Assembly (NCBI GenBank): GCA_937911235.1
Contig: CALDPN010000086.1
Span: 1-59,638 of the forward strand
Direction: 5' to 3'
Source: an uncultured Bacteroidales bacterium
GTDB taxonomy: Bacteria; Bacteroidota; Bacteroidia; Bacteroidales; Paludibacteraceae
DNA: 59,638 nt
Shown: in pieces, positions 1,617 through 18,256 of the stretch
How positions within the stretch are numbered: position 1 is the first letter of the stretch
Layout of the letters: each line of letters starts with the position of its first letter
Translations under genes and position numbers: made by a program
Notes under the pieces: generated by a model
The model's database searches: none
Told to the model about the DNA's origin: nothing
What the model saw: only the letters and a program-made list of their open reading frames with translations

Positions 1617-1617
1617 G

Positions 1618-2685: not shown

Positions 2686-2691
2686 TATATT

Positions 2692-4407
2692 ATGAAAAAG
2701 ATTTTAACTAGTTTATTAATGTACATCGTCTGTTGTAGTTTGCTTACAGCTCAAACAACAGATGAGAATGGTGCGAAAAACTATACTGCAAATGTAGCAG
2801 TATTTGTGAACGAAACTATGTATGAGATTGAAAATGGTAGCATACATAGGGCAGAAATAGAGGGAAGAGAACGTCTTAAAGATGCCCTAACATTGTATAT
2901 GTCTCAGTATTTTATGCAGAATGGTTTTCTTATAGTTAATTCTGATCCTGCTATAAACCAAAAAATTAATTCTATAGTCCAAGAAAATAAATTAGAAGAG
3001 TATATTGATGGTATGTCTATTCAAGCTAAGAATGTAGGAGCTCAATTCCTAGCTCTTTTAGATTATACATTATATATGGAGAAAAATACAGATATAACAG
3101 TAGATTTCGCATTTAGGTTTATTAATGTCTATACAGGAGTTTCTACACATAGACACGTAACGCGCACTGATGTATGTTATACTGCAAATGATGTTAATAA
3201 ATTATCAGTTGATGCATTTAAAGAGTTTACAATCGAATTTGACGATTTCTTTAAACATCAATTTATACCTTCTTTCGTGGTATCAGAAGTAAATGGAAAG
3301 AAGACAAAATTATTTGCTACACGTGCGATGCAATTGACAAATGATAATGTTGATTACTATAAATGGTACAATGAGGTACATAAATTTAATGGTAAGGAAA
3401 TAAAATTCTGTTGTTTAGACTACCTTACTACATCGTCAACTCCTTTAAGTAAAGCAAAAGTTGATATGAATACACAGGCTATAATGCTTAATACAAAGAA
3501 GGCGATTTCAGAAAATCCTCAATCATTAACAGCTACTGCTGGTGTTAAATGGTTTATAGTTGGAGAATCGCATTCTCCTGTGATTTATACTTATTTGGAA
3601 TTACCTTATACCGAAAATAGCAAAGAAGCTTTTGCAAGAAAGATGGTAAATAATGCAGTTTTTCAGGCAATATCTACTCATCCAAACCAAAATTTGATAG
3701 CCGAAAGTGAGATGAATCCAGAAATAAAAGCTGAGAGGGAAAGACAAAAATCAGAAGATTTTATGAATACAGAAAATAATAATTATCAGAATCTGATTGA
3801 TAAGTTGGGCTCAGGTGCAATGGGGGCACAATATTTGATTTCTATAGAAGACTTTAAATTAGATTCAAATGATATTAAGAAGGTGTCTTTTACACTTAAA
3901 TGTTATGGAACAGAAGAAAATATATTACATAAGGCACATAATGTGTCGTGTCATTTATCTAATATTAATGAAGTAATGGATTACTATATAAATCAGTATC
4001 TATTAACATTAGTAAGTGTTTCATCTTTTGATAATAAGTCTATATCTCTAGTGACAACAATGTGGTTGAAGGCAAATGTCGGTGACATTTTTGTGTTGAA
4101 TGGGATAATGGAAATTACTGACCCATTAACAGGTAAAACAGTTTATAAAAGGACTCCAATCGCTGAATATAAATATATAGAATGGAAAGGTCAGAAACAT
4201 GTCCTTGAGTTAAAGGCTGTGTTGAATAAAGAAATGTATAAGAATATGGCAGAATTGTGCGAGAGAGAAAGAAATGGTAAAGGCAATTTTACTTTGTCAA
4301 AACATGTAAATAAACCAGATAAAATGGATAGAGACAATTCTATATTTGCTAAAAAAGAAAAGGCAAATAATGTTTTAGATGCATTTAGTGGAGGTTTTGG
4401 CTTCTAG
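2692..4407 (+). CDS. secreted hypothetical protein (571 aa)
   Basis: Signal peptide MKKILTSLLMYIVCCSLLTAQ. Last gene of a tightly packed four-gene unit, followed by a strong hairpin. Confidence 0.5.
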   Translation: MKKILTSLLMYIVCCSLLTAQTTDENGAKNYTANVAVFVNETMYEIENGSIHRAEIEGRERLKDALTLYMSQYFMQNGFLIVNSDPAINQKINSIVQENKLEEYIDGMSIQAKNVGAQFLALLDYTLYMEKNTDITVDFAFRFINVYTGVSTHRHVTRTDVCYTANDVNKLSVDAFKEFTIEFDDFFKHQFIPSFVVSEVNGKKTKLFATRAMQLTNDNVDYYKWYNEVHKFNGKEIKFCCLDYLTTSSTPLSKAKVDMNTQAIMLNTKKAISENPQSLTATAGVKWFIVGESHSPVIYTYLELPYTENSKEAFARKMVNNAVFQAISTHPNQNLIAESEMNPEIKAERERQKSEDFMNTENNNYQNLIDKLGSGAMGAQYLISIEDFKLDSNDIKKVSFTLKCYGTEENILHKAHNVSCHLSNINEVMDYYINQYLLTLVSVSSFDNKSISLVTTMWLKANVGDIFVLNGIMEITDPLTGKTVYKRTPIAEYKYIEWKGQKHVLELKAVLNKEMYKNMAELCERERNGKGNFTLSKHVNKPDKMDRDNSIFAKKEKANNVLDAFSGGFGF

Positions 4408-4433
4408 GTTTGATCTATCTTTATTTAAGAATG

Positions 4434-4496
4434 TACTCTGAATCCTGCGGAATGTAGCAAAAATTTACACATTCCGCAGAGTTCAGAGTATTTTTC
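4434..4496 (+). terminator. rho-independent terminator after the four-gene operon
   Basis: TACTCTGAATCCTGCGGAATGT (4434-4455) pairs with ACATTCCGCAGAGTTCAGAGTA (4469-4490) at 20/22 bp with a 13-nt loop, followed by TTTTTC. Confidence 0.6.
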
Positions 4497-4513
4497 ATGA
4501 ACTATTAAAATAA

Positions 4514-4666
4514 AAGTTCCGGAAGTTTACAGAGGATATTAGTGGCTACTACCTAACAATAGATAACGAGAAATATCTTATCTGCGACCCTACATACATT
4601 GGTGCTCCAATTGGCGATTGTATGCCAGACTTCCAAAATGTATCAGCAGAAATCATCAAGATTTAA
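4514..4666 (+). pseudogene. possible C-terminal gene remnant (about 50 codons, no start codon)
   Basis: Open frame KFRKFTEDISGYYLTIDNEKYLICDPTYIGAPIGDCMPDFQNVSAEIIKI-stop, bounded upstream by an in-frame TAA at 4511 with no ATG. It has protein-like composition and lies in otherwise unassigned DNA. Confidence 0.2.
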
Positions 4667-4670
4667 CAAT

Positions 4671-6119
4671 TTAGCTTAAGCCAAACAAGTCATCCATTGT
4701 GATTTCTTTTTGAACTAGTCCACTATATTTACCATATTTGATACCATATGTGCTAATTATGGTTAGGTGTATGGCTTGTTTTGCAGAGAGTGTATCTTTG
4801 AGAGTTTCAATGCGATGTCTAAGTTTTGAGTCTTCTTCTTTGTCAATATTGTAGATGTCGCTTGCAAATTTCATTTCACAAAGATTTACAATATTATCTT
4901 TTCTAATAATTAGAAGGTCTATTTGTGCTCCTTCTCGGTTGTCATTGCCTTTTATGCTCCAAGCTGATATAGAGCAGTTGAGACCTTTTATTCCAAGAGC
5001 ATTTTTGATGTTATCAATATGTTGCCAACAAACTTCTTCGAATGCAATACCTCTCCAATACTTTAAAATGTCTGAAGTAATATTTTCAGTCATATAGTTT
5101 GTTTTGTTACTGTTTGCTTCTACATGCTTAAGCCAAAACAAACAGAAGTTGTCGATAAGTTTATATTTTACTACCTTTCCGTGCTCATTGTATGGAGTGT
5201 ATTTTTGTATGAAATCGCTTTCTATAAGTGATGTTAATGTATTTGTAAGTCCTCCTCCAAAAGGAATTCCAGTTTCTGCTGAGATTTCTTCTCTAGTGTA
5301 ACCTATATGTTTTGTAGAAAGTAGTTTGATTATTTTTTTGCAATCTTCTGGATTGCTGAATATTGCTTTAAATAGTCTATTGTATTCGTCTTTAAGTCGA
5401 GGATTCCTTCCAAAAAGTATTTCATCAATATTTGCAGATAGGCTAAAACCCTTTTTGAAATATCTTAGATAATATGGAATTCCCCCAAATACCATATATG
5501 CTTGAATAATGTCGTAGCGTGACATTATAATATTTTCGTGTTCAAAATATTCTTCACATTCTTTTAAAGTAAAAGGTGATAATTTAATCTCGTCTGTAAG
5601 TCTGCCATATAGTCCACCTTTATTACGAGATAAGTTTCCTAATATCCATGAAGTCGCACTTCCGCATACAATAAGCATAATATTATCCCTGCCGCTACAC
5701 CAACCATTCCAAAAACTTTCAAATGCAGGTAAAAATCCAGAGCGTGGGGTATCCATCCAAGGAAGTTCATCTAAAAAGATTACTTGTTTAGAGCCATCGT
5801 CAAATCTTATCAGTAGTTGTTTTAGTTGAAAAAAAGCTTCCATCCAAGTTTTGGGTTTGTCGTAGCCTTCTAAACCATGACTCAAAAGTGTATAGTAGAA
5901 ACTTTCTAATTGTGTTCTCATAAGATTCTTCTCACTTTCTTGATCTACAGGTGAAACTCCTGTGTGTTGAAAGGTGAAACGATTCTTAAAAACCTGATTG
6001 ATTAGAAAGGTTTTTCCAACGCGTCTTCTGCCATATACTGCAACAAATTCTGAACGGTCACTGTGATAGAGTTTTTCTAGCTCTTCTATCTCTTTTTTTC
6101 TGCCTATTATTACACTCAT
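4671..6119 (-). CDS. AAA+ ATPase of the archaeal-ATPase/DUF234 type
   Basis: Walker A VYGRRRVGKT and Walker B VIFLDELPWM. Size (~480 aa) and the C-terminal region are typical of ATPase+DUF234 proteins. Confidence 0.75.
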   Translation of the reverse strand: MSVIIGRKKEIEELEKLYHSDRSEFVAVYGRRRVGKTFLINQVFKNRFTFQHTGVSPVDQESEKNLMRTQLESFYYTLLSHGLEGYDKPKTWMEAFFQLKQLLIRFDDGSKQVIFLDELPWMDTPRSGFLPAFESFWNGWCSGRDNIMLIVCGSATSWILGNLSRNKGGLYGRLTDEIKLSPFTLKECEEYFEHENIIMSRYDIIQAYMVFGGIPYYLRYFKKGFSLSANIDEILFGRNPRLKDEYNRLFKAIFSNPEDCKKIIKLLSTKHIGYTREEISAETGIPFGGGLTNTLTSLIESDFIQKYTPYNEHGKVVKYKLIDNFCLFWLKHVEANSNKTNYMTENITSDILKYWRGIAFEEVCWQHIDNIKNALGIKGLNCSISAWSIKGNDNREGAQIDLLIIRKDNIVNLCEMKFASDIYNIDKEEDSKLRHRIETLKDTLSAKQAIHLTIISTYGIKYGKYSGLVQKEITMDDLFGLS

Positions 6120-6138
6120 AATGTATTGGATTTTGTTG

Positions 6139-6146
6139 CAAATATA
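6139..6146 (-). promoter_or_regulatory. -7 box (TATATTTG on minus strand) for the ATPase gene
   Basis: Plus-strand CAAATATA lies 20 nt upstream of the minus-strand ATG at 6119. Confidence 0.3.
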
Positions 6147-6236
6147 TAAATAATTTTTCTATTTGGCAAAATATATACCTATTTATTCTGCCAAATAGAG
6201 TGTAAAATGGTTGTATGTGGCAAGATAAGCCCTTGT

Positions 6237-6932
6237 TTATTCTGCCATCATATCCATACTGAATACTTGGTCTACGCCTTCGGCTGCTTGTTTTTCTTCG
6301 GTTGCTTTGCTTTCTTCTTGCTCTCCTGTTTGGAATGCTTGATATGCTTCTTCCACTTCTTTTTCTTTGTCTTCTTTTAGCTTTTTAACGGTGCCCATGT
6401 GCCAATCATAGATTTCTTGTAGTTTGTCTTTGGCAAGTTGCATGTTTTCTTCTGAGGCACCATTCATTTTTAATGCCACTTTACTACTACCATAAGAGAA
6501 AATAGCTTCAAGTTTTGTGTTGGTAATGTCGAATTGAGCCTTAATATATTCCATACACACATCGTGACGCTCTTTGTTCATTTTGGGCATGGTGTAATAT
6601 ATTACTATTTCATCTTCGCCAGTTATTTCATTTTTCTCTGTTTTTTCTTCTATTTCAAATTCTGGGTGTTCTAGTTTAATTGCTTTTGTGATAGGAAGGA
6701 CATATTCTTTGTCTTTAGCAGTAATGGCAAATTGTTTGTCATTTGGAATTGCCACAGATGCCACTTCTTCTAGGTTTAGTTCTTTACCTTCTATTTTAAT
6801 GGTGGCAGAAAGGAGTGCCATTGGATCTGCGGTGATACATAAATTTGACAAATGAAAATAAAACAGCATAGCGTGGCCGTTCATTTTTTGTTTGGTTTCG
6901 TCAAATAGTTCGTTAATAGTTTTGTTATTCAT
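6237..6932 (-). CDS. hypothetical protein with ribosome-recycling-factor-like layout and acidic tail
   Basis: By-eye alignment to Frr/RRF. [52 protein letters not shown] matches [69 protein letters not shown] matches LPPLTEERRKDLTKIVR. Lies 15 nt downstream of the DUF4280 gene on the same strand. Confidence 0.4.
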   Translation of the reverse strand: [231 protein letters not shown]

Positions 6933-6947
6933 AACTTGATGTTTTAA

Positions 6948-7337
6948 TTATTTACCTGTTGTGTTTGCTACGTGCCCCGGATTTGTAATTGAGATATTAC
7001 CACCGTAGGCACACATTGTTTTACAATTGTCGAGTAGTGCTGGCATGTTTGATACCAATTCTTTGCCTCCGGGAGCCCATGGAGACACAATCACTGGGAT
7101 GCAAGGCATAGGTGTTAACACTCCCATCGCTGCAGATGTGGCAGATGCTACCGTAGGATTTGCCATAGATTGGCACATGCCAAATGGCATTATGTTCATC
7201 ATTGGTGCAAAGTCCATTATATTAGCCTTGGGTTTGTTTTGAATCATTGGTCTCAATGGCACGGTAACCATAAGTGTGGATGGTGCCATTCCGAAACTGC
7301 ATTTTAGCATTGCTCCCATGCATACATACTTAGCCAT
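6948..7337 (-). CDS. DUF4280 family PAAR-like protein
   Basis: Hallmarks GAMLKCSFGMAPSTLMV, FGMCQS, PCIPV..SPW, ALLDNCKTMCAYGGNISITNPGH. Size 129 aa. Confidence 0.8.
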   Translation of the reverse strand: MAKYVCMGAMLKCSFGMAPSTLMVTVPLRPMIQNKPKANIMDFAPMMNIMPFGMCQSMANPTVASATSAAMGVLTPMPCIPVIVSPWAPGGKELVSNMPALLDNCKTMCAYGGNISITNPGHVANTTGK

Positions 7338-7375
7338 AACCTTAATTATTAAATACTTGTGATTAATACTGTGAG

Positions 7376-7383
7376 CAAAGGTA
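7376..7383 (-). promoter_or_regulatory. candidate -7 box (TACCTTTG on minus strand) for the PAAR-like operon
   Basis: Plus-strand CAAAGGTA lies about 40 nt upstream of the minus-strand ATG at 7337. Confidence 0.25.
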
Positions 7384-7618
7384 TTTAAAAATCAATGTCG
7401 CTATTTTTTTATTGCGTTTAATTAATTAAATTTTAATCTCTTTAGACTTGAAACGTTTGCAAATTAAAAAATTAACTATTTCTTACATAAAAGCCTGGTT
7501 TTAAGGACTTTTGTTTAACAATTTTAATCTTACACTTCTAAAACAATGCTCAAAAATAAAAATATGTTAGATATGTTAAACATTACTCTTAAAAGGATTT
7601 CTCAGTGTAAGTTTTACA

Positions 7619-7626
7619 TACATTTG
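7619..7626 (+). promoter_or_regulatory. candidate -7 box (TACATTTG) for the E1/baseplate operon
   Basis: TAnnTTTG match at the end of a 293-nt AT-rich divergent intergenic region. If used, the real E1 start is more likely the ATG at 7649 than the GTG at 7631. Confidence 0.3.
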
Positions 7627-7630
7627 CCAC

Positions 7631-8851
7631 GTGCTAAAAACAAATGGCATGGTAAAAAGATATGAAATAGAAACGGTAACGTTACAAGAGTGGGGAACCG
7701 ATATTTACCCTAAACTTTCTTGGTTTAAACAAAGCAAGGTTGCTTCTGCTCATGTTATGGTTGTGGGTTGTGGTGCACTAGGCAACGAGGTAATAAAAAA
7801 CTTGGCGCTTTTTGGTGTGGGCAATATTGTTTTGGTAGACTTCGATGAAGTTGAATACTCAAATCTTACTCGTTCTATTCTTTTTTGTAGTGATGATGCA
7901 AAAATGCATCGTTACAAGGTGGAAGCTGCTGCGGAGAGTGTAAAAAGAATCAATCCTAATATTAATGTGACCACGATAGTGGGCGATATAAGTAATAGTG
8001 TAGGACTAGGACTTATTCGTAAAATGAATGTGATAGTGGGCTGTCTAGATAATAGATGGGCTCGTTATACACTAAATCGCTTGTGTATGCGTGCAGGAGC
8101 TCCTTGGGTAGATGGAGGAATTAACGCTCTTGAGGGAGTGGCAAAGGTGTTTATCCCTGGCAAAAATTGTTATGCTTGCACACTTGAGCCTTCTGCTCTT
8201 GCAGAATTGAAGCGCAGTACTTCTTGCGCTGTGGCAATTAAAAGAAATCAAGAAAGTGGCAGAGTGCCTACTACTCCAGTGGTGGCATCTATTATAGGTG
8301 CAGTTCAGGCACAAGAGGCTATGAAACTGATTCATAAAGAAGAACTCCAAGGTGGAGAACTTACATCGCTTTGTGGCAAAATGTTTTGCTACGATGGAGC
8401 TTCTATGACAGTGAGGTTGGTCTCTCACGAGGCTTGGGACGAAGATTGTCCAGTTCACGAACATTGGTCTCCTGTGATAGAATCTCCTCTTACCAATCTT
8501 AATACAGTAGAAGAAGTTTTAGCATATATAAAAGATAAATTTTCAACAGACTCTGCCGAAATAGTTTTAAGAAATCAGGCATTTGTGGATTTTATTGAAG
8601 ATAGAATTACTGGTGAAAAATACAATATAATGCTACCGGAGGCTGAGGTGTCTAGTTTTATAGAAAATGATGAGGTGCTGCGCATCAAACCAATGGGGCA
8701 GTTCTATCAACATACCATACGTGGTATCAATGAAGATTTTAAATACAAAAACCTAACACTAAAACAACTTGGCATTCCAGAGCAAGATGTGTTACACGTT
8801 AGGGATGAGAGAGAATTTTACGTTGAGTTAGGGTCAACTCCTAACTTCTAA
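7631..8851 (+). CDS. ThiF/MoeB/E1-like adenylating enzyme (ubiquitin-activating-like)
   Basis: Rossmann motif VMVVGCGALGNEVIKNLALFGVGNIVLVDFDEVEYSNLTRSILF (GxGxxG...D.D.V..SNL.R). CYAC Zn-type motif followed by STSCAVA. About 130 aa of extra C-terminal domain. Start may be the ATG at 7649. Confidence 0.85.
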   Translation: MLKTNGMVKRYEIETVTLQEWGTDIYPKLSWFKQSKVASAHVMVVGCGALGNEVIKNLALFGVGNIVLVDFDEVEYSNLTRSILFCSDDAKMHRYKVEAAAESVKRINPNINVTTIVGDISNSVGLGLIRKMNVIVGCLDNRWARYTLNRLCMRAGAPWVDGGINALEGVAKVFIPGKNCYACTLEPSALAELKRSTSCAVAIKRNQESGRVPTTPVVASIIGAVQAQEAMKLIHKEELQGGELTSLCGKMFCYDGASMTVRLVSHEAWDEDCPVHEHWSPVIESPLTNLNTVEEVLAYIKDKFSTDSAEIVLRNQAFVDFIEDRITGEKYNIMLPEAEVSSFIENDEVLRIKPMGQFYQHTIRGINEDFKYKNLTLKQLGIPEQDVLHVRDEREFYVELGSTPNF

Positions 8852-8883
8852 CTCCTAACTCCTAACTCCTAACTCCTAACTTT
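8836..8883 (+). repeat. tandem heptamer array (AACTCCT) about 6.9 units
   Basis: AACTCCT AACTTCT AACTCCT x4 AACTTT. The E1 stop codon TAA (8849-8851) lies inside the array, and the next ATG (8884) follows it directly. Confidence 0.9.
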
Positions 8884-9666
8884 ATGAAAAACACAAACAT
8901 ATCAGAATTGAGGGCAGAGGTGCTACTAAATCACTTATATCCAGAGCAAACAGATAACTGGATAGTAAGGGATAAGGGTACTTTTTATCGTAATTATAGT
9001 AGCGATATTTTGCAATTAGATGAAAAACTATCTCAAGTTTCTCTTTCACGTGATGGTTTGTTGCGTTTGCTTCCTCAGGGATTGATAAGTGCAGAAGATG
9101 ACCTTAGAGGCAAAGATTTTCCAACAAAATATGAGGAACTTACTCGTCGCAAAAACAACTTAGAAGAACTTTTTGTTCCATTCGATTCTTGGCGTTTTAG
9201 AGATGCAGTAAGAGATGAAGAGGATTTAGCAGACCTACTTGCAAATAAGCTAAATATCTTACTTAAAACATATTACGGAGTAGATATAGAGTCGGAGCAA
9301 AATCCAGATGTGAGAGAACTGATGAAAATGTTGCCTTTAGCAAGTAGTATTCGTGGCAATTATCACAAGATAGGTGATATACTAATGGTCATTTTAAAAC
9401 ATAGAGTTACTACTCACATTTCTTGCTACAATTGGAGCGACAAATTTATTGATACACAACCAATGGTAAGTTACAAGGTTTGGATTTCTAAACTTACAAA
9501 AGAAGAATATATCAGCCTTGAAAAAAATATAGAAGACTTGGTAAGTTTTATTGTTGAATGGTTTATCCCTTTTGATACACGTTGTGTAATAGAACTTAAA
9601 ACCGAAGAAAAAGCTTCGTTAAACCACACAATGCTTCTAAACTATAATACAAAGTTGAGTTTATAA
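8884..9666 (+). CDS. hypothetical protein; possible TssG-like baseplate component (weak)
   Basis: Sits in the operon between the E1 and TssK-like genes. Only faint resemblance (IRGNYHKIGDILMVILKHRV...W) to the central region of TssG. Confidence 0.3.
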   Translation: MKNTNISELRAEVLLNHLYPEQTDNWIVRDKGTFYRNYSSDILQLDEKLSQVSLSRDGLLRLLPQGLISAEDDLRGKDFPTKYEELTRRKNNLEELFVPFDSWRFRDAVRDEEDLADLLANKLNILLKTYYGVDIESEQNPDVRELMKMLPLASSIRGNYHKIGDILMVILKHRVTTHISCYNWSDKFIDTQPMVSYKVWISKLTKEEYISLEKNIEDLVSFIVEWFIPFDTRCVIELKTEEKASLNHTMLLNYNTKLSL

Positions 9667-9688
9667 ATTTTCTAAATACTTAAATAAG

Positions 9689-10831
9689 ATGAATGTAAAT
9701 GCAAAAATAGATTGGCATGCCGGAATGGAGCTTACTGCTCAAACATTTATCGAATTAGACAAATGCTTAGAAAGAAATAGGCAAATAACAAACACAGTAG
9801 CATGTGGAAATCATTTTGGAATCCTTCCTACTACTACATTTTCTTGCAAAGGTGTGTTTGTAAAAAAGACATTGGAGATAACTCCACTTTCATTTATGGC
9901 ACTTATGCCATCTGGTAACCTACTTCATGTAGATGAAAATGTGGTGGTTGATATTCCTATTTTGTATGGAAAGGAATATTATTTAGGTTGCAAGCAAGGT
10001 GATAAAACCCGTAGTTTCGACAAAGAACAAGTGCCTTTTGTATCTCCAGTGGCAGAATGTGGTATTTACACTTTCGAAGATTTGGCGTCTGCTCAGGTGT
10101 TCCCTTTAATGAAATTTAAAGTGAACGAGGGTGTTTTCTCTGTAGATAAAGATTATATACCTCCATTTTTAACCTTAGCTTTAGATACACGTTTTCAAGA
10201 CTATATAAACACTTTTGCTTCAAAAATTTCTGTTTTAGCAAAACATAAAAATCTAGAATCATCAGAGGCGAAACGTTGCTTTCTACGTTATGCAAATGTA
10301 CTTAAAAACTACAGCACTACACATAGAGTTCAACATTTTATAGAACTACTACAAGAAATAGCAGCTGCTGTAGAATTTTATATAGTTCAAGTATTTACAG
10401 AGCATGTAATTGAACAAAAGAGTTATTCTCCATACGATATAGTATCTTACCTAACATGGCTAGATGGATATTTACATGGTGCTGCCACAATTCTAGATGG
10501 AGTTGTGCTAGAAGACAAATCAATAGACTTCGATGCTCTAAAACTACAGGTTAAAGAAGAAATTTACGAAAAAGTTTATCCAGAACTTAAAGAGGCGTTG
10601 TACAATGAATTGCACGAAGAACTTAAGAAAGAAATTTGGGATGAGCTATATTCTTCACTTTCAGATTACATCAATGGTAATTTCAGAAAAGAAATCTTTG
10701 AATTGTTAGAAGGAAGGCTTTCAGAAGAACTATACGAAAAATTGTATAAGACCTTGTACGATGGATTATACAATGCTCTATACGTGCCTGCTCCGGTAGA
10801 GGAAGAAGAAGAGTTTTTACCTTTAATTTAA
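9689..10831 (+). CDS. TssK-like baseplate protein with atypical helical-repeat C-terminus
   Basis: N-terminus IDWHAGMELTAQTFIELD resembles the TssK signature W.EGM.L.PQHFQQ.D. The last ~100 aa are EL/LY-periodic repeats. Confidence 0.45.
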   Translation: MNVNAKIDWHAGMELTAQTFIELDKCLERNRQITNTVACGNHFGILPTTTFSCKGVFVKKTLEITPLSFMALMPSGNLLHVDENVVVDIPILYGKEYYLGCKQGDKTRSFDKEQVPFVSPVAECGIYTFEDLASAQVFPLMKFKVNEGVFSVDKDYIPPFLTLALDTRFQDYINTFASKISVLAKHKNLESSEAKRCFLRYANVLKNYSTTHRVQHFIELLQEIAAAVEFYIVQVFTEHVIEQKSYSPYDIVSYLTWLDGYLHGAATILDGVVLEDKSIDFDALKLQVKEEIYEKVYPELKEALYNELHEELKKEIWDELYSSLSDYINGNFRKEIFELLEGRLSEELYEKLYKTLYDGLYNALYVPAPVEEEEEFLPLI

Positions 10832-10836
10832 AGCTT

Positions 10837-11274
10837 ATGATTACTCGTATTCCACTACAAATAAACTCAGGTGTTTTAGCCACTTATACAGATGTAAAAG
10901 AATCTATTGATGCACATGTAGAGTTGCTACTCACCACACCAGTAGGTAGTTGTGTCTCTGATCCAAACTTTGGTTTTATCTTAAATAATCTACGTTTCGA
11001 GATATTTAACGAAAACGAAGGTGTGGTGTTGAATGCAGACGAAGACCCTTCTGAACTATACGAGAAAAAGGTGTCTGGTTCTTCTAGAAATGTAAACACT
11101 TTTGCTATAGAACTTAAACAACTCATTGAACATTACGAACCAAGACTAGAAGATGTGCTTGTTACAATGTCATATGTGAGAGAGCATCGCAAAATTTACA
11201 TAACTATTAAAGGTGTTATCATAGAAACACAAACAAATTATCAGTATCAAACTTCTATTAGAATTTGGCAATAG
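10837..11274 (+). CDS. GPW/gp25-family baseplate wedge protein (TssE-like)
   Basis: SIDAHVELLLTTPVGSCVSDPNFGF matches the gp25 core I...L.T..G.R...P.FG. Size 145 aa. Confidence 0.7.
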   Translation: MITRIPLQINSGVLATYTDVKESIDAHVELLLTTPVGSCVSDPNFGFILNNLRFEIFNENEGVVLNADEDPSELYEKKVSGSSRNVNTFAIELKQLIEHYEPRLEDVLVTMSYVREHRKIYITIKGVIIETQTNYQYQTSIRIWQ

Positions 11275-11277
11275 ATT

Positions 11278-12972
11278 ATGAGAAAAAAAATATTTGCTAC
11301 AGGAGAGATGGCTAAAGAGCTTCAAAAAGAAGCTATGGCTATTTGGCGTATGGGAAGTAATGAAGAGAACTTTGAGGGGATGGAAAATGACCCAGTGGTC
11401 TCATTACTTATGACAGCCTTGGCGTATCAAGAATATACAGCTGATAATGAACTTTCTCGACTAAAAAATGAGGTACTAGAAGACTTCTCTCGTATGCTTA
11501 TCCCATACGAATTATGTCATGCGAAACCTGCAAGTGTGTTGGTGCGAACAAACACAGAAGAGCAAGTAAATAAGGTGTCGCTTCATTCTGGAATGTCATT
11601 TACGCTTAGTGAAAATAAATTCAATTTTATGCCACTTCTAGATACCACAGTTTACAATGCAAAACTAGACTCAGTGGTGCGACTAGATGCTCGTAGATGG
11701 AAGGTGAGCATAAACTTCAAAGAAGAAATTTCTTCTCTAGAGGGTTTCTCATTCCTTGTTGATAATCACAACTTCAAAGACCTAAACATTAGCCTCGGAG
11801 GTAAACGTATTTCTCTTATAAAACCTTGGCACTATGCAAATTTGCCACTTTCTAAGTGTTTCTCTATAGATTCAATGCTATACAATGAAACCTTGGCATT
11901 TGACGCTAGCACCACATGGTTCGATTTATTTGCTCAGCAAAACAAACGCATGTTTGTGGTAGAAAAATATGCAACAGACGATATTTTTACTTGCCCTGTA
12001 GACAAGATAGATTTAGTTTTTGAATTTGTGGGAATAACAGATGATTTTGTCTTTGATAAATCTCAACTAATCATAAACACAGTTCTACTTGTAAATACAA
12101 GTTTAAAAAATGCTACACTGTCTGTAAACAATCCTATTGTGCGTATTGCCGACGAAGAAGGAAATGCCTCAGAAAAACTTTTGCATTTAATGCGTCCTTC
12201 TTCTGAACAAATGTATAAAAACATTTCTTTCACTCTTCGTCGTTCTGCAATAGAGCGTTTCAATGTGGATAGTTTATTAAGACTTCTACACTGCCTAATA
12301 GACAAATATTCTACAGACTACTACGCATTTATGCAGATAGACAGACTAAAAAATGGTTTAGAAGTAAATCGTTTATATCAATGGCTTGTAAATCTAGCAA
12401 AATACCTAGAAGATTCACCAATGTCTGTGTCTTCTGGTGTGTATTTGTTACTTAAAAAAGGCAAAGATAGTTTGCTTGAAGACGAAAGTCTCACACTACA
12501 ATACCTTATCACTCAAGGTGCTATGATAAACCCATATTTAAGTACACGTGCGCAGTTCAATGTGCCAGTAGGCATCTCAATGCAAAAAACTAGCGTGGTG
12601 GCAGAGCCTGTTTTAGGCTTGGATGAAGTAGTTGGAGTGGATGTTCAAAACTCAATGTCTAGATATTATATGGTCACAAACAACAGACTTGTTACACCTG
12701 CCGATATCAAGATTTTCTGTTACAACGAGCTCCTAAGAAGATACAATATAGATTCTAGTATTATTCGCAATATAGTGGTGACAAATGCAATTCATTCAGA
12801 AAGAGGTCATTGTGGTTTTGAAACCAAAGTAGAGATACTTATTATAGATGATGTATTTGTCAAACGTAGTTTGGCAGGAAAAATAAACGAAGTAGAACTT
12901 ATTCTACAAAAAATGATAGAGGTTCGTAGTTCTTTCGCCTATCCAGTTCAAGTGAATATTCGTATTGTTTAA
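11278..12972 (+). CDS. TssF-like baseplate protein
   Basis: NDPVVSLLMTALAYQEYTADNELSRLKNEVLEDFSRMLIPYELCHAKPASVLV parallels the TssF N-terminal block DP.VERLLEGFAFL.AR....LDD.FP.....LL..L.P..L.P.PS. Size 564 aa. Sits immediately after the gp25-like gene, as in tssE-tssF. Confidence 0.55.
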   Translation: MRKKIFATGEMAKELQKEAMAIWRMGSNEENFEGMENDPVVSLLMTALAYQEYTADNELSRLKNEVLEDFSRMLIPYELCHAKPASVLVRTNTEEQVNKVSLHSGMSFTLSENKFNFMPLLDTTVYNAKLDSVVRLDARRWKVSINFKEEISSLEGFSFLVDNHNFKDLNISLGGKRISLIKPWHYANLPLSKCFSIDSMLYNETLAFDASTTWFDLFAQQNKRMFVVEKYATDDIFTCPVDKIDLVFEFVGITDDFVFDKSQLIINTVLLVNTSLKNATLSVNNPIVRIADEEGNASEKLLHLMRPSSEQMYKNISFTLRRSAIERFNVDSLLRLLHCLIDKYSTDYYAFMQIDRLKNGLEVNRLYQWLVNLAKYLEDSPMSVSSGVYLLLKKGKDSLLEDESLTLQYLITQGAMINPYLSTRAQFNVPVGISMQKTSVVAEPVLGLDEVVGVDVQNSMSRYYMVTNNRLVTPADIKIFCYNELLRRYNIDSSIIRNIVVTNAIHSERGHCGFETKVEILIIDDVFVKRSLAGKINEVELILQKMIEVRSSFAYPVQVNIRIV

Positions 12973-12988
12973 TAAAAAAAATAAGATT

Positions 12989-13306
12989 ATGGAAGAATTT
13001 TTCTTAAACATAGTTTATAAAAACAAGAAGGTACGCTTTCGCATTATAAATCCAGAAGCACCTCTTAGTACGTTAATGAGCAACCTACGCCATGCCATAG
13101 GTAAAGATGGAAGACTTATTTTCGATTTCCCATCTGTAGATAATACAGGTGCTCCACTAGATTATTTCTTTGGAAAAGAAGACGCTGAGATAAATGAAAT
13201 TAGAGTTTTACGTCCAAGAGTAGGTAAAGTGGATCAAACTTTAGCCGACTATAGCATCAAAAATGGCGATACAGTATATTTAATTCCAGACCCATTCCCA
13301 GGATAG
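12989..13306 (+). CDS. small ubiquitin-like (beta-grasp) protein candidate ending in Gly-stop
   Basis: About 105 aa from the ATG at 12989 (the track start at 12965 is TTG). Alternating beta-like segments KVRFRII...LADYSIKNGDTVYLIPDPFPG, with the C-terminal residue Gly directly before TAG. The stop is 2 nt before the E2 start. Confidence 0.5.
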   Translation: MEEFFLNIVYKNKKVRFRIINPEAPLSTLMSNLRHAIGKDGRLIFDFPSVDNTGAPLDYFFGKEDAEINEIRVLRPRVGKVDQTLADYSIKNGDTVYLIPDPFPG

Positions 13307-13308
13307 TT

Positions 13309-13869
13309 ATGAAAGAGTTAACTGGACGAAATAGACGATTGCAACACGAATGGAAAACCTTAGAAAAAAGGCTAGCCTCAAGGTCTGATATAGACTTTTC
13401 CATTTCAAAACTAAATGCACAAGGTATGCCAATAGGCTATGAAGTAACATATCATGTGAAGTCTATTTGTGGAGTTACAAACATAGAAAACTTAGACAAG
13501 CCAGGCATTGATAATGAACCAATATTTGCAGAAGAATTTAAAATGCAAATAGAAATACCAGAAGATTATCCTTGTATAGATGCAATGCCAGAGTTTTGCT
13601 TCAAAACAAAAGATTCAGAGGGCAATTCAATACCTCACCCTTGGCACCCAAATATTAGATATTTTGGAGAAATGGCAGGTAGAGTTTGTTTAAATGCACC
13701 AGATAGTTATATGGATTTGGTATGGTATGTAGAGCGAGTGGCTCTATATCTAAGATACGAACTATATCATGCCAAACAAGAGCCTCCTTATCCAGAAGAT
13801 ATTACTGTGGCACGTTGGGTACTTCGCCAGGGAGAACCAATGAGGTGGATATTTTTTAATCAAAAATAA
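13309..13869 (+). CDS. UBC-fold ubiquitin-conjugating (E2)-like protein
   Basis: EDYPCIDAMPEFCFKT...HPWHPNI (HPN at 13645-13653)...GRVCLNAP (Cys127 at 13687-13689). This reproduces the E2 pattern YP..PP...F...i.HPNi...G.iCLdil. Confidence 0.7.
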   Translation: MKELTGRNRRLQHEWKTLEKRLASRSDIDFSISKLNAQGMPIGYEVTYHVKSICGVTNIENLDKPGIDNEPIFAEEFKMQIEIPEDYPCIDAMPEFCFKTKDSEGNSIPHPWHPNIRYFGEMAGRVCLNAPDSYMDLVWYVERVALYLRYELYHAKQEPPYPEDITVARWVLRQGEPMRWIFFNQK

Positions 13870-13876
13870 TAAAGTG

Positions 13877-15055
13877 ATGAATAAAGCTGTTTGTAAATTA
13901 GTTTGTTCTTTGGTTGTTTTAACAACTGCATTTATGGCATCATGTGCTAGTAAAAAGGCCATTGAAATGCCTATAAAACCATACCAAGTAATAACAGTAT
14001 CAGAAGAAACTCCTTATACAGAAACAATTTCTACCAAAGAAGGGGCTAAAGATATGGATATGCTCCTTAAAATAGAGTATAGCGAGAACGATAATACATT
14101 AAATGTAAGTATTACTTCACAACATCATTTATTTGGTTTTAAAAACAATTCACTTTATAAAAATGTAATCAGAAACAAGAAAATTTCTCTAGTACGACTT
14201 CCATATAAAGTGGTATCAGAACCAGATATGACTTATAGATTGTCTAAAAATATCCGTAATAATATTTCTGGTTGTAACGATAAACATACATTTAAAGCCT
14301 GGATTTCTACTACAGGGTTGCATTCACAAATGTCAGACTATGAAATGGTTACAGAAATTCTAACCCAAAAGTTTGACATTGTAGGCGATACCACTATTAC
14401 AGTTACTTTAGGCGATATTATGATGATGGAGCGTTCGGTATCTAAGAAAAATCGTTACGACCTTACTTTCTATACCAACCTAAACAAATCATATGTGGTA
14501 AATATCAAGCGCAATCCGTGTTTAGGTAAGGAAGCAGAACTAGATTCTACCCAAACTTTGTTGGATGAAATTAAAGAAAACTATACATCACTAGCAAGTA
14601 AATACCCAAATGTTGAGAATCTTACACAAGAAACTCTTTTAGCTTTAGAAGAGGTGAGGGTGAAATTTGAAACTAAATACGAAAAGAAAGAAACTACAAA
14701 TGAATGCCCAGCCATAGCATCTATGCTAGAAAACTATAATACATACGTGGATTCTATAGCAAAACTAGCAGACGTGAAAGCTGAATTTGCTCATAAAAGA
14801 CCAAGACTTTCAATGCCGGCAGACCAACTATTAGCAGTGGCTCGTATGGTAGATACCAATGTGGCTTCATGGCTAGTGTCAAATGACGTGGTAGAAAAAG
14901 CCGATTTAGTTAAGCGAAACAGACACCTTATTGATGATATAAACAAGAAAATATCTAATAAAATGAGAATGGATACAGAGCAAACCAAAGCTTACGCTGT
15001 ATTCAAAAAAGCAGAAAGATACTTCAACGAAACTTGTCAAAACAAAAAGAAATGA
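13877..15055 (+). CDS. lipoprotein, unknown function
   Basis: Signal peptide with lipobox LTTAFMASC. ATG at 13877 (the track start at 13874 is GTG). 4-nt overlap with the next gene. Confidence 0.55.
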   Translation: MNKAVCKLVCSLVVLTTAFMASCASKKAIEMPIKPYQVITVSEETPYTETISTKEGAKDMDMLLKIEYSENDNTLNVSITSQHHLFGFKNNSLYKNVIRNKKISLVRLPYKVVSEPDMTYRLSKNIRNNISGCNDKHTFKAWISTTGLHSQMSDYEMVTEILTQKFDIVGDTTITVTLGDIMMMERSVSKKNRYDLTFYTNLNKSYVVNIKRNPCLGKEAELDSTQTLLDEIKENYTSLASKYPNVENLTQETLLALEEVRVKFETKYEKKETTNECPAIASMLENYNTYVDSIAKLADVKAEFAHKRPRLSMPADQLLAVARMVDTNVASWLVSNDVVEKADLVKRNRHLIDDINKKISNKMRMDTEQTKAYAVFKKAERYFNETCQNKKK

Positions 15056-15873
15056 GAAAGTTTTTTGTCTTAATATTATGCTTTGTTTGCTTTACGGCTA
15101 CTTGGGCGCAAGATACTCCTGCAGAAGCAAAAGTGGACCCATTTGCAGCACTAGAGGTGAGAGGTAGATTGTCTCTTTTTATAGAAGAAATAGAAACATT
15201 ACTTGCCAATGTGTCTTCTGCAAAACAAAAGCAACTTAAAAAAGCAGAAAAGTCGCTTAAAGCAGTAGAAAAGAAGTGGACTTTGTATAGCACTGCTCAT
15301 GGAGATGTTATTGCTTCAGAAGAAAGCCTAATGGAAGTAGTTGTGGCATACGAAGAGCGCAAACAATTATTGGCAGACTCTATAGCATCACAACTTCACA
15401 AACTCGACTCTTACGATAAGTTTGAGAGTGCAGAAGTTTTTATAGAATCTCAAATAGAACCTTATAACGAACTATATAACCAAGCAGTAGAATACTCTAT
15501 GCTAAAACAAACTGCATCACTACTAGAAAAACTTAAAACCAAAGAAGGACTTACTTTTAGTGATATTACAGCTCGTTACGAGGACTCTAAAACTATATCA
15601 GAAGAATATCCAGCCCTTAAAAAGAGAATGGAAGAATTAGAAGAGGAGTATATAGAAATTAAAGGACTTTCAGAAAAAATACAGGCTGCAGAATATAAAC
15701 CATTTCTAACTAGGATAAAAGATTACCTATATAGTTTTGCTGCAGTGGCAATGCTACTTATGTTTGCCAATATGGTACAAGCAAAAATACAAGCATCCCA
15801 ACAAATGCGTAAGAGCGCCAAAGAGTATCAAGAATTATTAAAGAAAAACGAAGAAGAAATACCTTCCATTTAA
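15052..15873 (+). CDS. exported coiled-coil protein with C-terminal membrane anchor
   Basis: ATGA overlap start gives MRKFFVLILCFVCFTATWAQ as signal peptide. Long helical E/K-rich body. Hydrophobic segment YLYSFAAVAMLLMFANMVQA near the C-terminus. Confidence 0.5.
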   Translation: MRKFFVLILCFVCFTATWAQDTPAEAKVDPFAALEVRGRLSLFIEEIETLLANVSSAKQKQLKKAEKSLKAVEKKWTLYSTAHGDVIASEESLMEVVVAYEERKQLLADSIASQLHKLDSYDKFESAEVFIESQIEPYNELYNQAVEYSMLKQTASLLEKLKTKEGLTFSDITARYEDSKTISEEYPALKKRMEELEEEYIEIKGLSEKIQAAEYKPFLTRIKDYLYSFAAVAMLLMFANMVQAKIQASQQMRKSAKEYQELLKKNEEEIPSI

Positions 15874-15880
15874 ATATATA

Positions 15881-18256
15881 ATGGCTATGAAAACTTGTAA
15901 ATTTTTATGTTTAGCATTTTTAATGCTAATAGCAGTAGGTTGTTCAGAAGGTAAATTAGATAACACTACCAGTGAAACTGAAAATCTTGAAATTTCTGAT
16001 ATTCAATTCGATGAGAATTATAAGGATTTCTCAATAGGGGTGCATTTCAAAGATGCCTTTATGCCAAAGAAAAGACTTCACATTGGCAAGATAAAACTAA
16101 ATGTTACAGAATATGATTCTGATATGAATAAGATTACAGAATCTGCTCAGCCAATTTTCAGAGGTGCTAAAAACCTTCATTCAGAAAAGATAAAAGATTT
16201 AGGCATCAAAGGTCTAGTGCTAGTGGACTTGTCTTTAGACGAATTGCAAATAGAAAAAGAGAAAGGGGCAGTAGAAAGTTTGAGAGAGTTTGTTTTTGAA
16301 AACCAACTATATGTAGCCTTTATGCAAGATGGCAAGGTGAGCCCAACTTATCCTGCTACAGATTATGTTCTAGACAATTACTTTATTCCAAATCAAGCTC
16401 CTAAAAAATTGTTTGGTAGTATAGTTGCTAAGATGGATGAGATGAAAAGTGAAGATTCTGAATTTTTCTCACAAACAGCAACAGAAAATAAAGTACTTAT
16501 TGTGTTTTCCGACGGACATATCTACAATGGTGATAAACCTATAGATCCTAAACACTTTGAGTATCAAGAAATATTACTAAACCAAACAAAGCAAGACGAT
16601 AAACTACAATTTTGTTATGTAAACTTCAACGAAGAAAAAGACGATGAGTTTGCAGTGGAGAATGATGTAGAAAACATATTCACATACATTTGCAAAGGCT
16701 TGGGTGGAGCGTATATTCCAGACGTGGATATGAAACAAATAGCTACAGAGGTAATGCGTGGTAGAGATAGTGAAAAAGTGGATTTTAGACTAAAACTTAC
16801 AAATCCAGATCATAAAATTTACCGTGGCGACGAAAGAATACTTAAGGTTAATTGTATGTATGATGGAGAACTACTTTTCACAGGTTCTAAATCATATTCT
16901 TTAGGTAGTGTGTATAAACCTGTTATAGTCAATGGTTCTGGTTTATATAGCGTATTAATACAAGCCGCAGTATTTACATTAATATTAGTATTATCCATCT
17001 ACGTGGTATTTCAACTAATAGAACCTTATGTGAAATATCGTATCTTCAAGTATAAATACGTAACCAAATATACAGGGCCAAATATGAGTTGGAGAGGCAT
17101 CCAAGTGCCAGATTCATGCTACTATTGTAAAACACCATTCGAGATAGGCGACGAGATAGTAGTGAAATGTGAGCACGTTATGGATATGTCTTGTTGGAAA
17201 GAAAATTTATACAGATGCCCTGAATATGGCAGAAGATGCAATTTAGGAAAGCACTATTACAACGACAAAAACATTTTCGATAAGAAAAATGCACCTTATT
17301 ATATGAAGTGGCTTTTAGCTGGTACATTGGCAGGGTTCGTAGCATGGTTCTTCTTTATATTAGGCACCTTCCACTCAGATCTGTCATTTATAAATGGAAT
17401 ATATGATAAGGTTTCACAATTTGACCCTTTAAGAGATATGGTGTTTGGTTTACACAATAATGTAACATCAGGCATGTTTGCTGCACCATACTTTGGTTTC
17501 TTTATGTGTTTCTGTTTAACCCTTGCCTTAAGTTTACTTTCTAGTCATGGTAAATGGTTGTACAAACGCACAGTTGTGGTACTTATAAAATCTTTAGTCG
17601 CAGGTATATGTGGTTATCTTACATATCTATTAGTAGTGTTGGCACTAATCGCATTCAAGCTAAAAGGTTATTATTATATGATAGACTGGATACCATGGGC
17701 ATTAAATGGTTATATAGTGGCATATGCAGTAGCATTTAAAACAGATATTAAACTGAAAAAAGCATTAATGGGTGCAACTATTTCTATGGGATTCTCAATA
17801 GCCTCAATGTATCTTTGGAATTATTCAACACATTCACACATAGATACTAGAGATTTATTATTGGTAAGTTGTTTAATATATGGCATCGGCTTAGCAGCCA
17901 GTCTTGCTATAAATTTTCCACAATCTGAACGCTATTTTATAAAGGTGGAAGGACCAATTAAAACTATGGAGTTGGCACTTTATAAGTGGATGAACGCACA
18001 AGTTATAAACCGCTGCGTTACCATAGGTAAGTCTGTGGATTGTAATCTGCAAATGTCTTGGGATATAAATAGTGCCATTGCCCCAAAACAAGCAGAACTA
18101 AAAATGATAGGAGGTAATATCTATCTTATTCCACTTGAAAACGGCGTCACTTTCAAAGGTAAACCAGCTATCATAGACAAACGCATTCACCTATATCACG
18201 GCGACAAGTTTGTGATAGGACAAACTAAGTTCACATATGTAGAACACGATGTGTAA
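15881..18256 (+). CDS. multidomain membrane protein: lipoprotein signal, vWA-like domain, TM, RING-like Zn finger, polytopic TM block, FHA-like C-terminus
   Basis: Lipobox LIAVGC. vWA-like strands GLVLVDLSLD and VLIVFSDG. C413-x2-C-x13-C-x-H-x5-C-x7-C-x6-C453 (17117-17239). About six further hydrophobic helices. C-terminal TIGKSVDCNLQM...AELKMIGGNIYLIPLENGVTFKGKP...LYHGDKFVIGQTKFTY has the FHA topology pattern with divergent pThr-binding residues. Confidence 0.6.
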   Translation: MAMKTCKFLCLAFLMLIAVGCSEGKLDNTTSETENLEISDIQFDENYKDFSIGVHFKDAFMPKKRLHIGKIKLNVTEYDSDMNKITESAQPIFRGAKNLHSEKIKDLGIKGLVLVDLSLDELQIEKEKGAVESLREFVFENQLYVAFMQDGKVSPTYPATDYVLDNYFIPNQAPKKLFGSIVAKMDEMKSEDSEFFSQTATENKVLIVFSDGHIYNGDKPIDPKHFEYQEILLNQTKQDDKLQFCYVNFNEEKDDEFAVENDVENIFTYICKGLGGAYIPDVDMKQIATEVMRGRDSEKVDFRLKLTNPDHKIYRGDERILKVNCMYDGELLFTGSKSYSLGSVYKPVIVNGSGLYSVLIQAAVFTLILVLSIYVVFQLIEPYVKYRIFKYKYVTKYTGPNMSWRGIQVPDSCYYCKTPFEIGDEIVVKCEHVMDMSCWKENLYRCPEYGRRCNLGKHYYNDKNIFDKKNAPYYMKWLLAGTLAGFVAWFFFILGTFHSDLSFINGIYDKVSQFDPLRDMVFGLHNNVTSGMFAAPYFGFFMCFCLTLALSLLSSHGKWLYKRTVVVLIKSLVAGICGYLTYLLVVLALIAFKLKGYYYMIDWIPWALNGYIVAYAVAFKTDIKLKKALMGATISMGFSIASMYLWNYSTHSHIDTRDLLLVSCLIYGIGLAASLAINFPQSERYFIKVEGPIKTMELALYKWMNAQVINRCVTIGKSVDCNLQMSWDINSAIAPKQAELKMIGGNIYLIPLENGVTFKGKPAIIDKRIHLYHGDKFVIGQTKFTYVEHDV

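Follow-up and report, generated by a model that had tools for sequence, protein, structure and literature searches.

A divergent type VI secretion baseplate wedge encoded together with an apparent ubiquitin-like conjugation cascade in Bacteroidales

Why should the genes of a contractile baseplate lie between the genes of a ubiquitin-like conjugation pathway, with no sheath, tube, spike or ATPase gene nearby? The question is raised by a stretch of 59,638 nucleotides from an uncultured Paludibacteraceae bacterium (contig CALDPN010000086.1; the whole stretch is called the window below), in which four open reading frames (ORFs) at 8884-9666, 9689-10831, 10837-11274 and 11278-12972 form a same-strand array with intergenic gaps of 3-22 nt. 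A preliminary description, made from the letters of the window, had read them as TssK-, TssE- and TssF-like components, possibly with a TssG, of a stand-alone wedge module, which either was co-opted as a scaffold or sensor or supplements a type VI secretion system (T6SS) encoded elsewhere. The four ORFs are part of a block of ten (7631-18256), all on one strand with a spacing of -22 to +32 nt. We find that they encode a real T6SS baseplate wedge made of TssK, TssE and TssF homologues and a probable TssG, and that the window holds the baseplate, membrane and ubiquitin-like protein (Ubl) half of a T6SS lineage. It is probable that this wedge belongs to a distinct Bacteroidales lineage, distantly related to T6SSiii, in which docking or firing is under the control of the Ubl.

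The ORF at 10837-11274 (forward strand, like all ORFs of the block) encodes the TssE/gp25 subunit, since it matches PF04965 with 49.4 bits against a cut-off of 27.2; it also matches TIGR03357 (E 2.3e-10, 40.2 bits, under the cut-off of 53.2). The product of 9689-10831, 380 amino acids long, is TssK-like and has the shoulder and neck of TssK at its N-terminus. Its residues 5-260 are colinear with positions 1-259 of the profile TIGR03353 (E 1.3e-9; 37.7 bits, under the curated cut-off of 100 bits), the best five matches of its family profile in the PDB are all TssK, and the orthologue in Millionella is labelled 'TssK' in RefSeq. For the C-terminal head domain of TssK, there is no alignment with TIGR03353 past residue ~260 of the 380, and the last ~120 amino acids form an acidic/aromatic helical repeat of poor conservation in place of the head.

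The 564-amino-acid product of 11278-12972, taken alone, has no match in Pfam or NCBIfam. An exhaustive search over 1.8 billion representatives gave 213 relatives, and PF05947 is matched individually by 21 of the 69 that are full-length. The family profile aligns end to end by hhalign (probability 99.6, E 6e-24) with P0266, a Pfam-positive TssF in a canonical T6SSiii locus together with TssR, ClpV, TssC, Hcp, VgrG, TssE and PAAR. Moreover, an AlphaFold (AF2) model computed from 69 diverse sequences reached a pLDDT of 88.2 and a pTM of 0.82 (an earlier model from 16 close homologues had a pLDDT of 44 and was unusable). When this model was compared with the PDB by Foldseek, the top matches were chains H and I of 6n38 (E 3.7e-15, probability 1.0), the two TssF chains of a TssK-TssF-TssG complex, followed by gp6-like wedge proteins from the contractile systems of Streptomyces, Photorhabdus, Serratia and Algoriphagus and from the phages T4, P1 and phiKZ. 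A search of the PDB sequences with the family profile gave nothing significant, with TssF 6giy at E 2.2. From the structural and the profile alignments together, the protein is a divergent TssF/gp6-like subunit. Orthologues bear the name 'hypothetical' in RefSeq or, in the case of the one in Millionella massiliensis (WP_071133726.1, at 10001-11695 of locus L015), 'rhodanese-like domain-containing protein', most likely a mis-annotation.

The product of the first wedge ORF (8884-9666, 260 amino acids) is probably TssG; the suggestion had already been made in the preliminary description, and we regard it as likely, not proven. The family comprises 98 relatives. No match to PF06996 or to any other Pfam family was found among 44 members, no PDB sequence was matched, and hhalign showed no similarity to the TssF-like family. 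The family does align with the T6SSiii TssG of locus L038 (hhalign probability 90, E 1.6e-6, 174 colinear columns), and a jackhmmer search seeded with that protein recruits the entire family. The reference itself (L038, 11855-12775) is taken as TssG because it has a weak match to PF06996 and occupies the expected place between TssF and TssN. In addition, the TssG-like gene of locus L032 follows tssF, which is the canonical order. The reading of the ORFs as TssK-, TssE- and TssF-like, with a likely TssG, is borne out by Pfam and TIGRFAM, hhalign, the PDB profile search and the AF2/Foldseek comparison.

The rest of the T6SS was sought in the window by two routes. Pfam scans, which covered the principal ORFs (the longest per locus, mostly of 100 amino acids or more), detected no TssB/C, Hcp, VgrG, ClpV or TssN/O in the 59.6 kb. 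Searches by jackhmmer with TssB, TssC, Hcp, VgrG, ClpV, TssN, TssO and PAAR of T6SSiii yielded the block alone, and those that took VgrG, Hcp and X589/601 from related loci as cognate queries found nothing in the window outside the block. The absence of TssB/C, Hcp, VgrG and ClpV stated in the preliminary description is thus confirmed. According to Pfam, the window from 18.3 kb rightwards is occupied by housekeeping genes.

A different picture emerged when related loci were collected with one genome per species, which gave 32 loci. The hosts are Candidatus Enterocola and other Paludibacteraceae (98% identity), Bacteroidaceae, Parabacteroides, Alistipes, Millionella massiliensis and many Prevotella, and the carriers include P. 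distasonis An863 and Prevotella strain ne3005. With the exception of L032, the ten-gene order E1-TssG-TssK-TssE-TssF-Ubl-E2-lipoprotein-coiled-coil-RING/FHA is kept wherever the contig extends, and the loci span five families; genes for a DUF4280 protein and an RRF-like protein lie near the block. In L017, ClpV-TssB-TssC-Hcp-Hcp-DUF4280-PEGA protein-E1-TssG-TssK-TssE-TssF-Ubl-E2 and the following genes run on one strand without gaps. In L019, the order is Hcp-VgrG-X589-DUF4280-RRF-like-E1 and onwards, and Pfam confirms TssD, Phage_base_V and Phage_GPD there. The order in L032 is TssB-TssC-Hcp copies-TssK-TssE-TssF-TssG-Ubl-E2 and onwards; this Prevotellaceae locus (1640-15601) has four Hcp-like genes, and its Ubl, E2 and RING genes are present. 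At least one of VgrG, X589/601, Hcp and TssB/C lies upstream of the block in 24 loci of this kind (type A), and a long VgrG-like gene stands at the edge of the 10-kb flank in 14 loci. Put together from these relatives, the complete locus would read ClpV-TssB-TssC-Hcp(n)-VgrG-X(~600 aa)-{DUF4280, RRF-like}-(outer-membrane protein)-(PEGA protein)-10-gene block, and by its gene content the full locus in the relatives is a T6SS.

The block is therefore not stand-alone, because relatives such as L017, L019 and L032 carry the same block directly downstream of T6SS tail genes on the same strand. This gives no support to a wedge that stands alone and has been co-opted as a scaffold or sensor. The preliminary description had also considered that the four genes might be the split-off part of an adjacent T6SS with an unrelated ubiquitin module. 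In the relatives, a T6SS is indeed adjacent, but the module is not unrelated: it is integral and interleaved, and the link of the wedge to an E1/E2 pair holds, much more strongly than the window alone could show, in that the wedge genes lie between E1 and Ubl/E2 in the related loci, except in L032 with its other gene order and no E1. A protein of ~590-600 amino acids without Pfam match always follows VgrG in this lineage (L003, 3149-4954; L019, 3459-5228; and counterparts); possibly it is an additional component, either structural or an adaptor.

No anchor of the T6SSiii kind was detected. The three envelope-protein families of the block gave an hhalign probability below 1% against TssN and TssO; no cluster protein has a Pfam match to TssN, TssO or TssR (TssP and TssQ were tested through Pfam alone); and phmmer and jackhmmer find no TssN or TssO in any related locus.

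The lack of tail genes beside the block in this strain can be traced at its left flank. Locus L003 is from the same species as the window (dS, the synonymous divergence, is 0-0.1 in the block, and the DNA identity is 95%). There, VgrG-X601 abuts the RRF-like gene, where the window has unrelated DNA, and the alignment of the window with L003 begins at 6249 and runs rightwards. As judged from this comparison, the left junction is a strain-level rearrangement in which the DNA left of the RRF-like gene was replaced by an unrelated operon and a gene for a STAND ATPase. With that DNA replaced, the tail genes must have another place in the genome of this strain or have been lost, and of the two alternatives of the preliminary description, a wedge that supplements a T6SS encoded elsewhere is the better one. 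When the window is compared with L005 and L007, two loci that likewise have no VgrG next to the block, the ratio of nonsynonymous to synonymous substitution rates (dN/dS) is 0.03-0.19. That the block is intact and under purifying selection in three Enterocola lineages without adjacent VgrG argues that it still functions.

The other genes of the block encode what appears from its sequence motifs to be a complete, eukaryote-like and catalytic set of E1, E2, RING and Ubl. The E1-like activating enzyme (7631-8851) consists of a ThiF adenylation domain (PF00899, 181.9 bits) and a C-terminal region of ~130 amino acids. Its top PDB matches are the eukaryotic UBA7, UBA6 and SAE2, plus MoeB, and its conserved features are GxGxxG, C180-x2-C183, C199 and C273/H276. 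The Ubl (12989-13306, 105 amino acids, with Gly as last residue) is the most conserved protein of the block, with a mean column identity of 85%, and all of its 32 orthologues end in ...PDP[F/I]PG with the stop directly after the terminal Gly. According to the family alignment, its start is likely the ATG at 12989, not the TTG at 12965. A beta-grasp fold is indicated by weak matches to Rad60-SLD (E 0.002) and to ubiquitin variants (E 0.004). The E2-like conjugating enzyme (13309-13869) has the motif HPWHPNIR..AGxVC invariant across its orthologues, with H113-P114-N115 and C127 invariant in 12 diverse ones; it matches Pfam UQ_con with E 8.7e-5 (22.6 bits, under the 27-bit cut-off), and its best PDB matches are the eukaryotic UBE2K and Ubc13.

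The last ORF of the block (15881-18256) encodes a polytopic membrane protein of 791 amino acids, in which a lipoprotein signal, a periplasmic domain, a transmembrane (TM) helix, a cytoplasmic RING-H2-like finger, ~4-5 TM helices and a C-terminal FHA domain follow each other. The periplasmic domain is a vWA domain in relatives (the L037 homologue), and the recorded annotations of the L037 and L001 homologues include PF00092 VWA and FHA. The finger, C413...C453, has the conserved pattern C-x2-C-x13-C-x-H-x2-(H/D)-x2-C-x7-C-x6-C, in which the last ligand pair is non-canonical in spacing, and matches Pfam zf-RING_2 weakly (E 0.019). RefSeq names of orthologues are 'E3 ubiquitin protein ligase' for this protein and 'ubiquitin-conjugating enzyme family protein'. 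The cascade looks catalytic because the terminal Gly of the Ubl, the HPN...Cys of the E2, the nucleotide loop and cysteines of the E1 and the predicted ligands of the RING-like finger are intact. As for single residues, position 435, where the fifth zinc ligand is predicted, holds Asp in the window and in three close Enterocola/Paludibacteraceae relatives and His in all other orthologues.

Two further envelope proteins are encoded between the E2 and the RING/FHA protein. The ORF at 13874-15055 encodes a predicted lipoprotein of 393 amino acids, with an N-terminal hydrophobic segment and a lipobox-like ...ASC, which is found in every related locus whose sequence extends that far and has no family match in Pfam or NCBIfam. 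The ORF at 15034-15873 encodes a signal-peptide/coiled-coil protein of 279 amino acids with a C-terminal TM helix (hydrophobic segments 7-25 and 232-250). It is kept in 30 related loci, and its counterparts in the more distant type-B loci (see below) end in the same ...IPSI C-terminus.

How could such a cascade serve a baseplate? In T6SSiii, TssN docks the baseplate, its cytoplasmic ubiquitin-like domain binding TssK (PMC10781749). In our preferred reading, which we infer partly by analogy with that contact, Ubl conjugation at the membrane RING controls the docking or firing of the baseplate. The E1 would adenylate the Ubl at its terminal Gly and transfer it to Cys127 of the E2, and the RING finger on the cytoplasmic face of the 791-amino-acid membrane protein would recruit the charged E2, so that conjugation would occur at the inner membrane, beside the docked baseplate. 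The most likely targets would be a baseplate subunit, TssK in the first place, or the membrane protein itself. Conjugation would then license or stabilise the docking of the wedge, and hence firing, on a lineage-specific membrane complex that the lipoprotein and the coiled-coil protein would form with the RING/FHA protein. Phospho-threonine could be a further input, received by the FHA domain. What TssN achieves in T6SSiii by a non-covalent contact of its ubiquitin-like domain with TssK would here have a covalent counterpart. Docking is preferred because the lineage is without TssN, its TssK is without the usual head, and it has a free conjugatable Ubl together with a membrane E3. The more specific evolutionary proposal, that the lineage replaced a TssN-based anchor with a membrane RING E3 and that Ubl conjugation controls assembly, docking, firing or cargo loading, is put forward tentatively, with slightly less than even confidence.

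Several observations weigh against a Ubl-controlled T6SS of this kind. In the window's own genome, there is no sheath, tube, spike or ClpV gene in 59.6 kb, and its tail half may have been lost; L005, L007 and L014 have no VgrG within 10 kb, and L032 has no E1 within 19 kb of sequence. The TssG call comes from an hhalign probability of 90% against a single sequence. Pfam support is under the curated cut-off for the E2 and very weak for the RING and the Ubl, and Pfam and NCBIfam scans of the block ORFs found no deubiquitinase or other peptidase. Furthermore, hhalign shows no sequence similarity of the Ubl to the TssN domain, and the docking analogy is one of functional reasoning.

The missing tail genes could also mean that the wedge works without a sheath, here and perhaps in L005, L007 and L014, as a platform or sensor docked at the membrane, with Ubl conjugation for its output. 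Tail genes are absent from the 59.6-kb window and from within 10 kb in those three loci, the genes are intact and under purifying selection in those lineages, and distant modules with E1 and JAB (L035, L037) or with Ser/Thr kinases (L039) have no sheath in 12-21 kb. However, the same block is continuous with ClpV, TssBC, Hcp and VgrG genes in other carriers, including the same-species relative, and a PAAR-like spike tip is kept, for which no role is apparent unless there is a VgrG/Hcp tube. An absence within 10-50 kb is weak evidence, given how often the genes of a T6SS are scattered over several loci, and even among the distant loci L034 has a ClpV-like ATPase beside TssF. We consider such a sheath-less platform unlikely. 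The same degree of doubt applies to a role of the Ubl in cargo handling, in which it would be a loading tag on effectors or adaptors (the ~600-amino-acid and RRF-like proteins being candidates), or in which the Ubl or its conjugates would be secreted. Most loci do have the PAAR-like, RRF-like and ~600-amino-acid genes placed between VgrG and E1, the conservation of the Ubl greatly exceeds that of its neighbours, as expected for a tag read by several partners, and a ubiquitin homologue is known to be secreted as a toxin by Bacteroides (PMC5705921). But the Ubl and E2 genes lie between the wedge and membrane-protein genes, away from the variable cargo region, and the RING is fixed in a membrane protein beside the presumed docking site; both features speak against a cargo tag.

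Less probable still is an anti-phage role similar to that of the Bil and Bub systems, in which parts of phage tails would be recognised by the baseplate homologues, or would assemble together with them, and then become Ubl-modified. Wherever a function has been proven for bacterial E1/E2/Ubl operons, it is antiviral, and a protein of the phage tail is modified by Bil (PMC10557695); the adenylation domain of the E1 is shared with models of CBASS Cap2, and a candidate defence gene of the family PDC-S27 is next door in the window. That gene is absent from most related loci, however, and among the cluster proteins the PADLOC models are matched by the generic E1 domain alone. The block has no deubiquitinase (DUB) and includes envelope proteins, its chromosomal position in Enterocola is fixed, next to the gene for shikimate dehydrogenase, and in relatives it forms one stretch with ClpV, sheath, tube and spike genes, all of which speak against defence. 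Ubl-controlled docking or firing of a T6SS thus remains the reading that we prefer.

Compared with T6SSiii, the lineage is alike in that the TssE, TssF, TssG and TssK homologues of the block are closest to T6SSiii proteins, that ClpV, TssB, TssC, Hcp and VgrG of the relatives are detectably related to theirs, and that both share the tssE-tssF adjacency, the host phylum and the gut as habitat. It is unlike T6SSiii in that it has no detectable TssN, TssO or TssR-like proteins and has three other envelope proteins, one of them with RING and FHA, that the TssK head domain is replaced, and that its wedge genes alternate with genes for E1, Ubl and E2. In addition, TssC of L017 is 37% identical to T6SSiii TssC, while two T6SSiii TssC proteins are 66% identical to each other. 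Three T6SS architectures of Bacteroidales, GA1-3, were recognised as of 2024 (PMC10942478) and in reviews and surveys up to 2024-2026, and neither ubiquitin nor ThiF appears in the paper that defines them.

Bacterial operons with E1, E2, Ubl and a rare RING E3 were predicted by Burroughs, Iyer and Aravind in 2011 (as cited in PMC10557695). The block resembles these predicted systems and Bil/Bub in its separate E1, E2 and Ubl genes, the Ubl-terminal Gly, the HPN...Cys of the E2, the putative RING-type finger and the eukaryotic origin of the nearest solved E1/E2 relatives, but it differs in having no DUB, in carrying the RING inside a polytopic FHA membrane protein and in lying within a secretion-system locus. 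PADLOC has no defence-system model for the block, the generic E1 domain being the sole match.

In the H1-T6SS of Pseudomonas aeruginosa, assembly is controlled by threonine phosphorylation through PpkA, PppA and Fha1. The likeness to the present block is an FHA domain within a T6SS locus, placed so that it could couple a post-translational signal to membrane assembly; unlike there, the FHA domain is one part of a membrane RING protein, the block includes no gene for a kinase or phosphatase, and the chemistry would be Ubl conjugation. Ser/Thr kinases do accompany the wedge module in L039, a distant relative. The new element is the combination of a T6SS with an E1-E2-E3 cascade and the loss of TssN/O, each part being of a known kind. 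In the searchable literature, we found no description of a T6SS that contains E1, E2 and Ubl, and the predictions of 2011 may already list the E1/E2/RING genes.

If a membrane RING E3 has indeed taken the place of the TssN-based anchor and Ubl conjugation controls the machine, no bacterial secretion machine before this one would have been described with a ubiquitination cascade of its own, and bacterial E1-E2-E3 systems would have a role other than defence. If the cascade acts on the machine, covalent Ubl tagging would join phosphorylation and transcriptional control in the regulation of contractile injection systems, and bacterial E1/E2/RING enzymes would have a physiological role outside phage defence, which bears on the pre-eukaryotic origins of ubiquitin. 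There would then be a fourth, overlooked T6SS architecture in abundant Bacteroidales of gut and rumen (Prevotella, Parabacteroides, Alistipes, Millionella, Enterocola), and marker surveys based on GA1-3 or on TssN/O/P would miss it or call it incomplete. The question is directly testable because three carriers are cultured isolates, namely Parabacteroides distasonis An863, Millionella massiliensis and Prevotella sp. ne3005.

More distant relatives show other combinations. Type-B loci (L034, 53-11746; L035, 422-11797; L037, 2-11782) hold TssF-like proteins of ~30% identity, and their order is coiled-coil/TM, TM-JAB(MPN+), vWA/FHA membrane protein, outer-membrane barrel, E1-TssG-like-TssK-TssE-TssF. 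The JAB domain, with the JAB/MPN+ motif HSHPGLG...S..D, is restricted to these loci, in which no separate Ubl or E2 gene was detected; the JAB protein of L037 ends in ...RTRGGGL, and the ClpV-like ATPase of L034 is encoded beside tssF. In L039 (1253-14529), TssG-like, TssK, TssE and TssF are followed by a glucosaminidase-LysM protein, two Ser/Thr kinases and a BACON/outer-membrane protein, and no sheath or tube gene was found within 16 kb of sequence. Because type-B loci and L039 pair the wedge with E1/JAB or with Ser/Thr kinases, the coupling of this wedge lineage to protein-modification enzymes seems old and variable.

Immediately upstream of the block, in divergent orientation, are two genes on the reverse strand. 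The one at 6948-7337 encodes the DUF4280 PAAR-like protein, a candidate spike tip that had been recognised in the preliminary description (PF14107, E 2.1e-33). It is similar to IglG of the Francisella T6SSii (NF041248, E 3.4e-13), but with 49.8 bits against a 200-bit cut-off and without the N-terminal extension, profile positions 57-170 being covered. The DUF4280 gene is found in 28 related loci and stands directly after Hcp in L017 and L033. The other gene (6237-6932) encodes a divergent RRF-like protein of 231 amino acids (PF01765, 52.5 bits, E 6.5e-14), which is consistently paired with the PAAR-like DUF4280 protein within the T6SS locus and might be an adaptor, an effector or a chaperone. 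Its homologues adjoin DUF4280 in 24 related loci, and its dN/dS is 0.08-0.12 against L005 and L007. That it is the housekeeping frr was rejected, since it scores no more than 52 bits, is 231 amino acids long and travels with DUF4280.

Further left, the window holds the DNA that is unrelated to L003. The reverse-strand ORF at 4671-6119 encodes a STAND/AAA ATPase of 482 amino acids, which matches the candidate defence family PDC-S27 nearly end to end (PADLOC, 636 bits); it is shared with L007 and absent from L003. On the forward strand, a four-gene operon o150-DUF6175-o355-o571 (295-4407) encodes signal-peptide proteins of 150 amino acids, DUF6175, 355 and 571 amino acids. More than 40 contigs from gut metagenomes contain it as a conserved unit, at a distance from all T6SS genes, and a bridge from it to the T6SS was rejected, because the metagenome scan with the DUF6175 protein shows an independent operon. 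Between the operon and the STAND ATPase, after o571, lies a perfect terminator hairpin with a 22-bp stem and a U-run (4433-4491; -32.6 kcal/mol, z -7.8). The same 60-bp hairpin element is found at the corresponding boundary, after the ~600-amino-acid gene, in L004 and L008, and for this reason the hairpin marks the rearrangement breakpoint.

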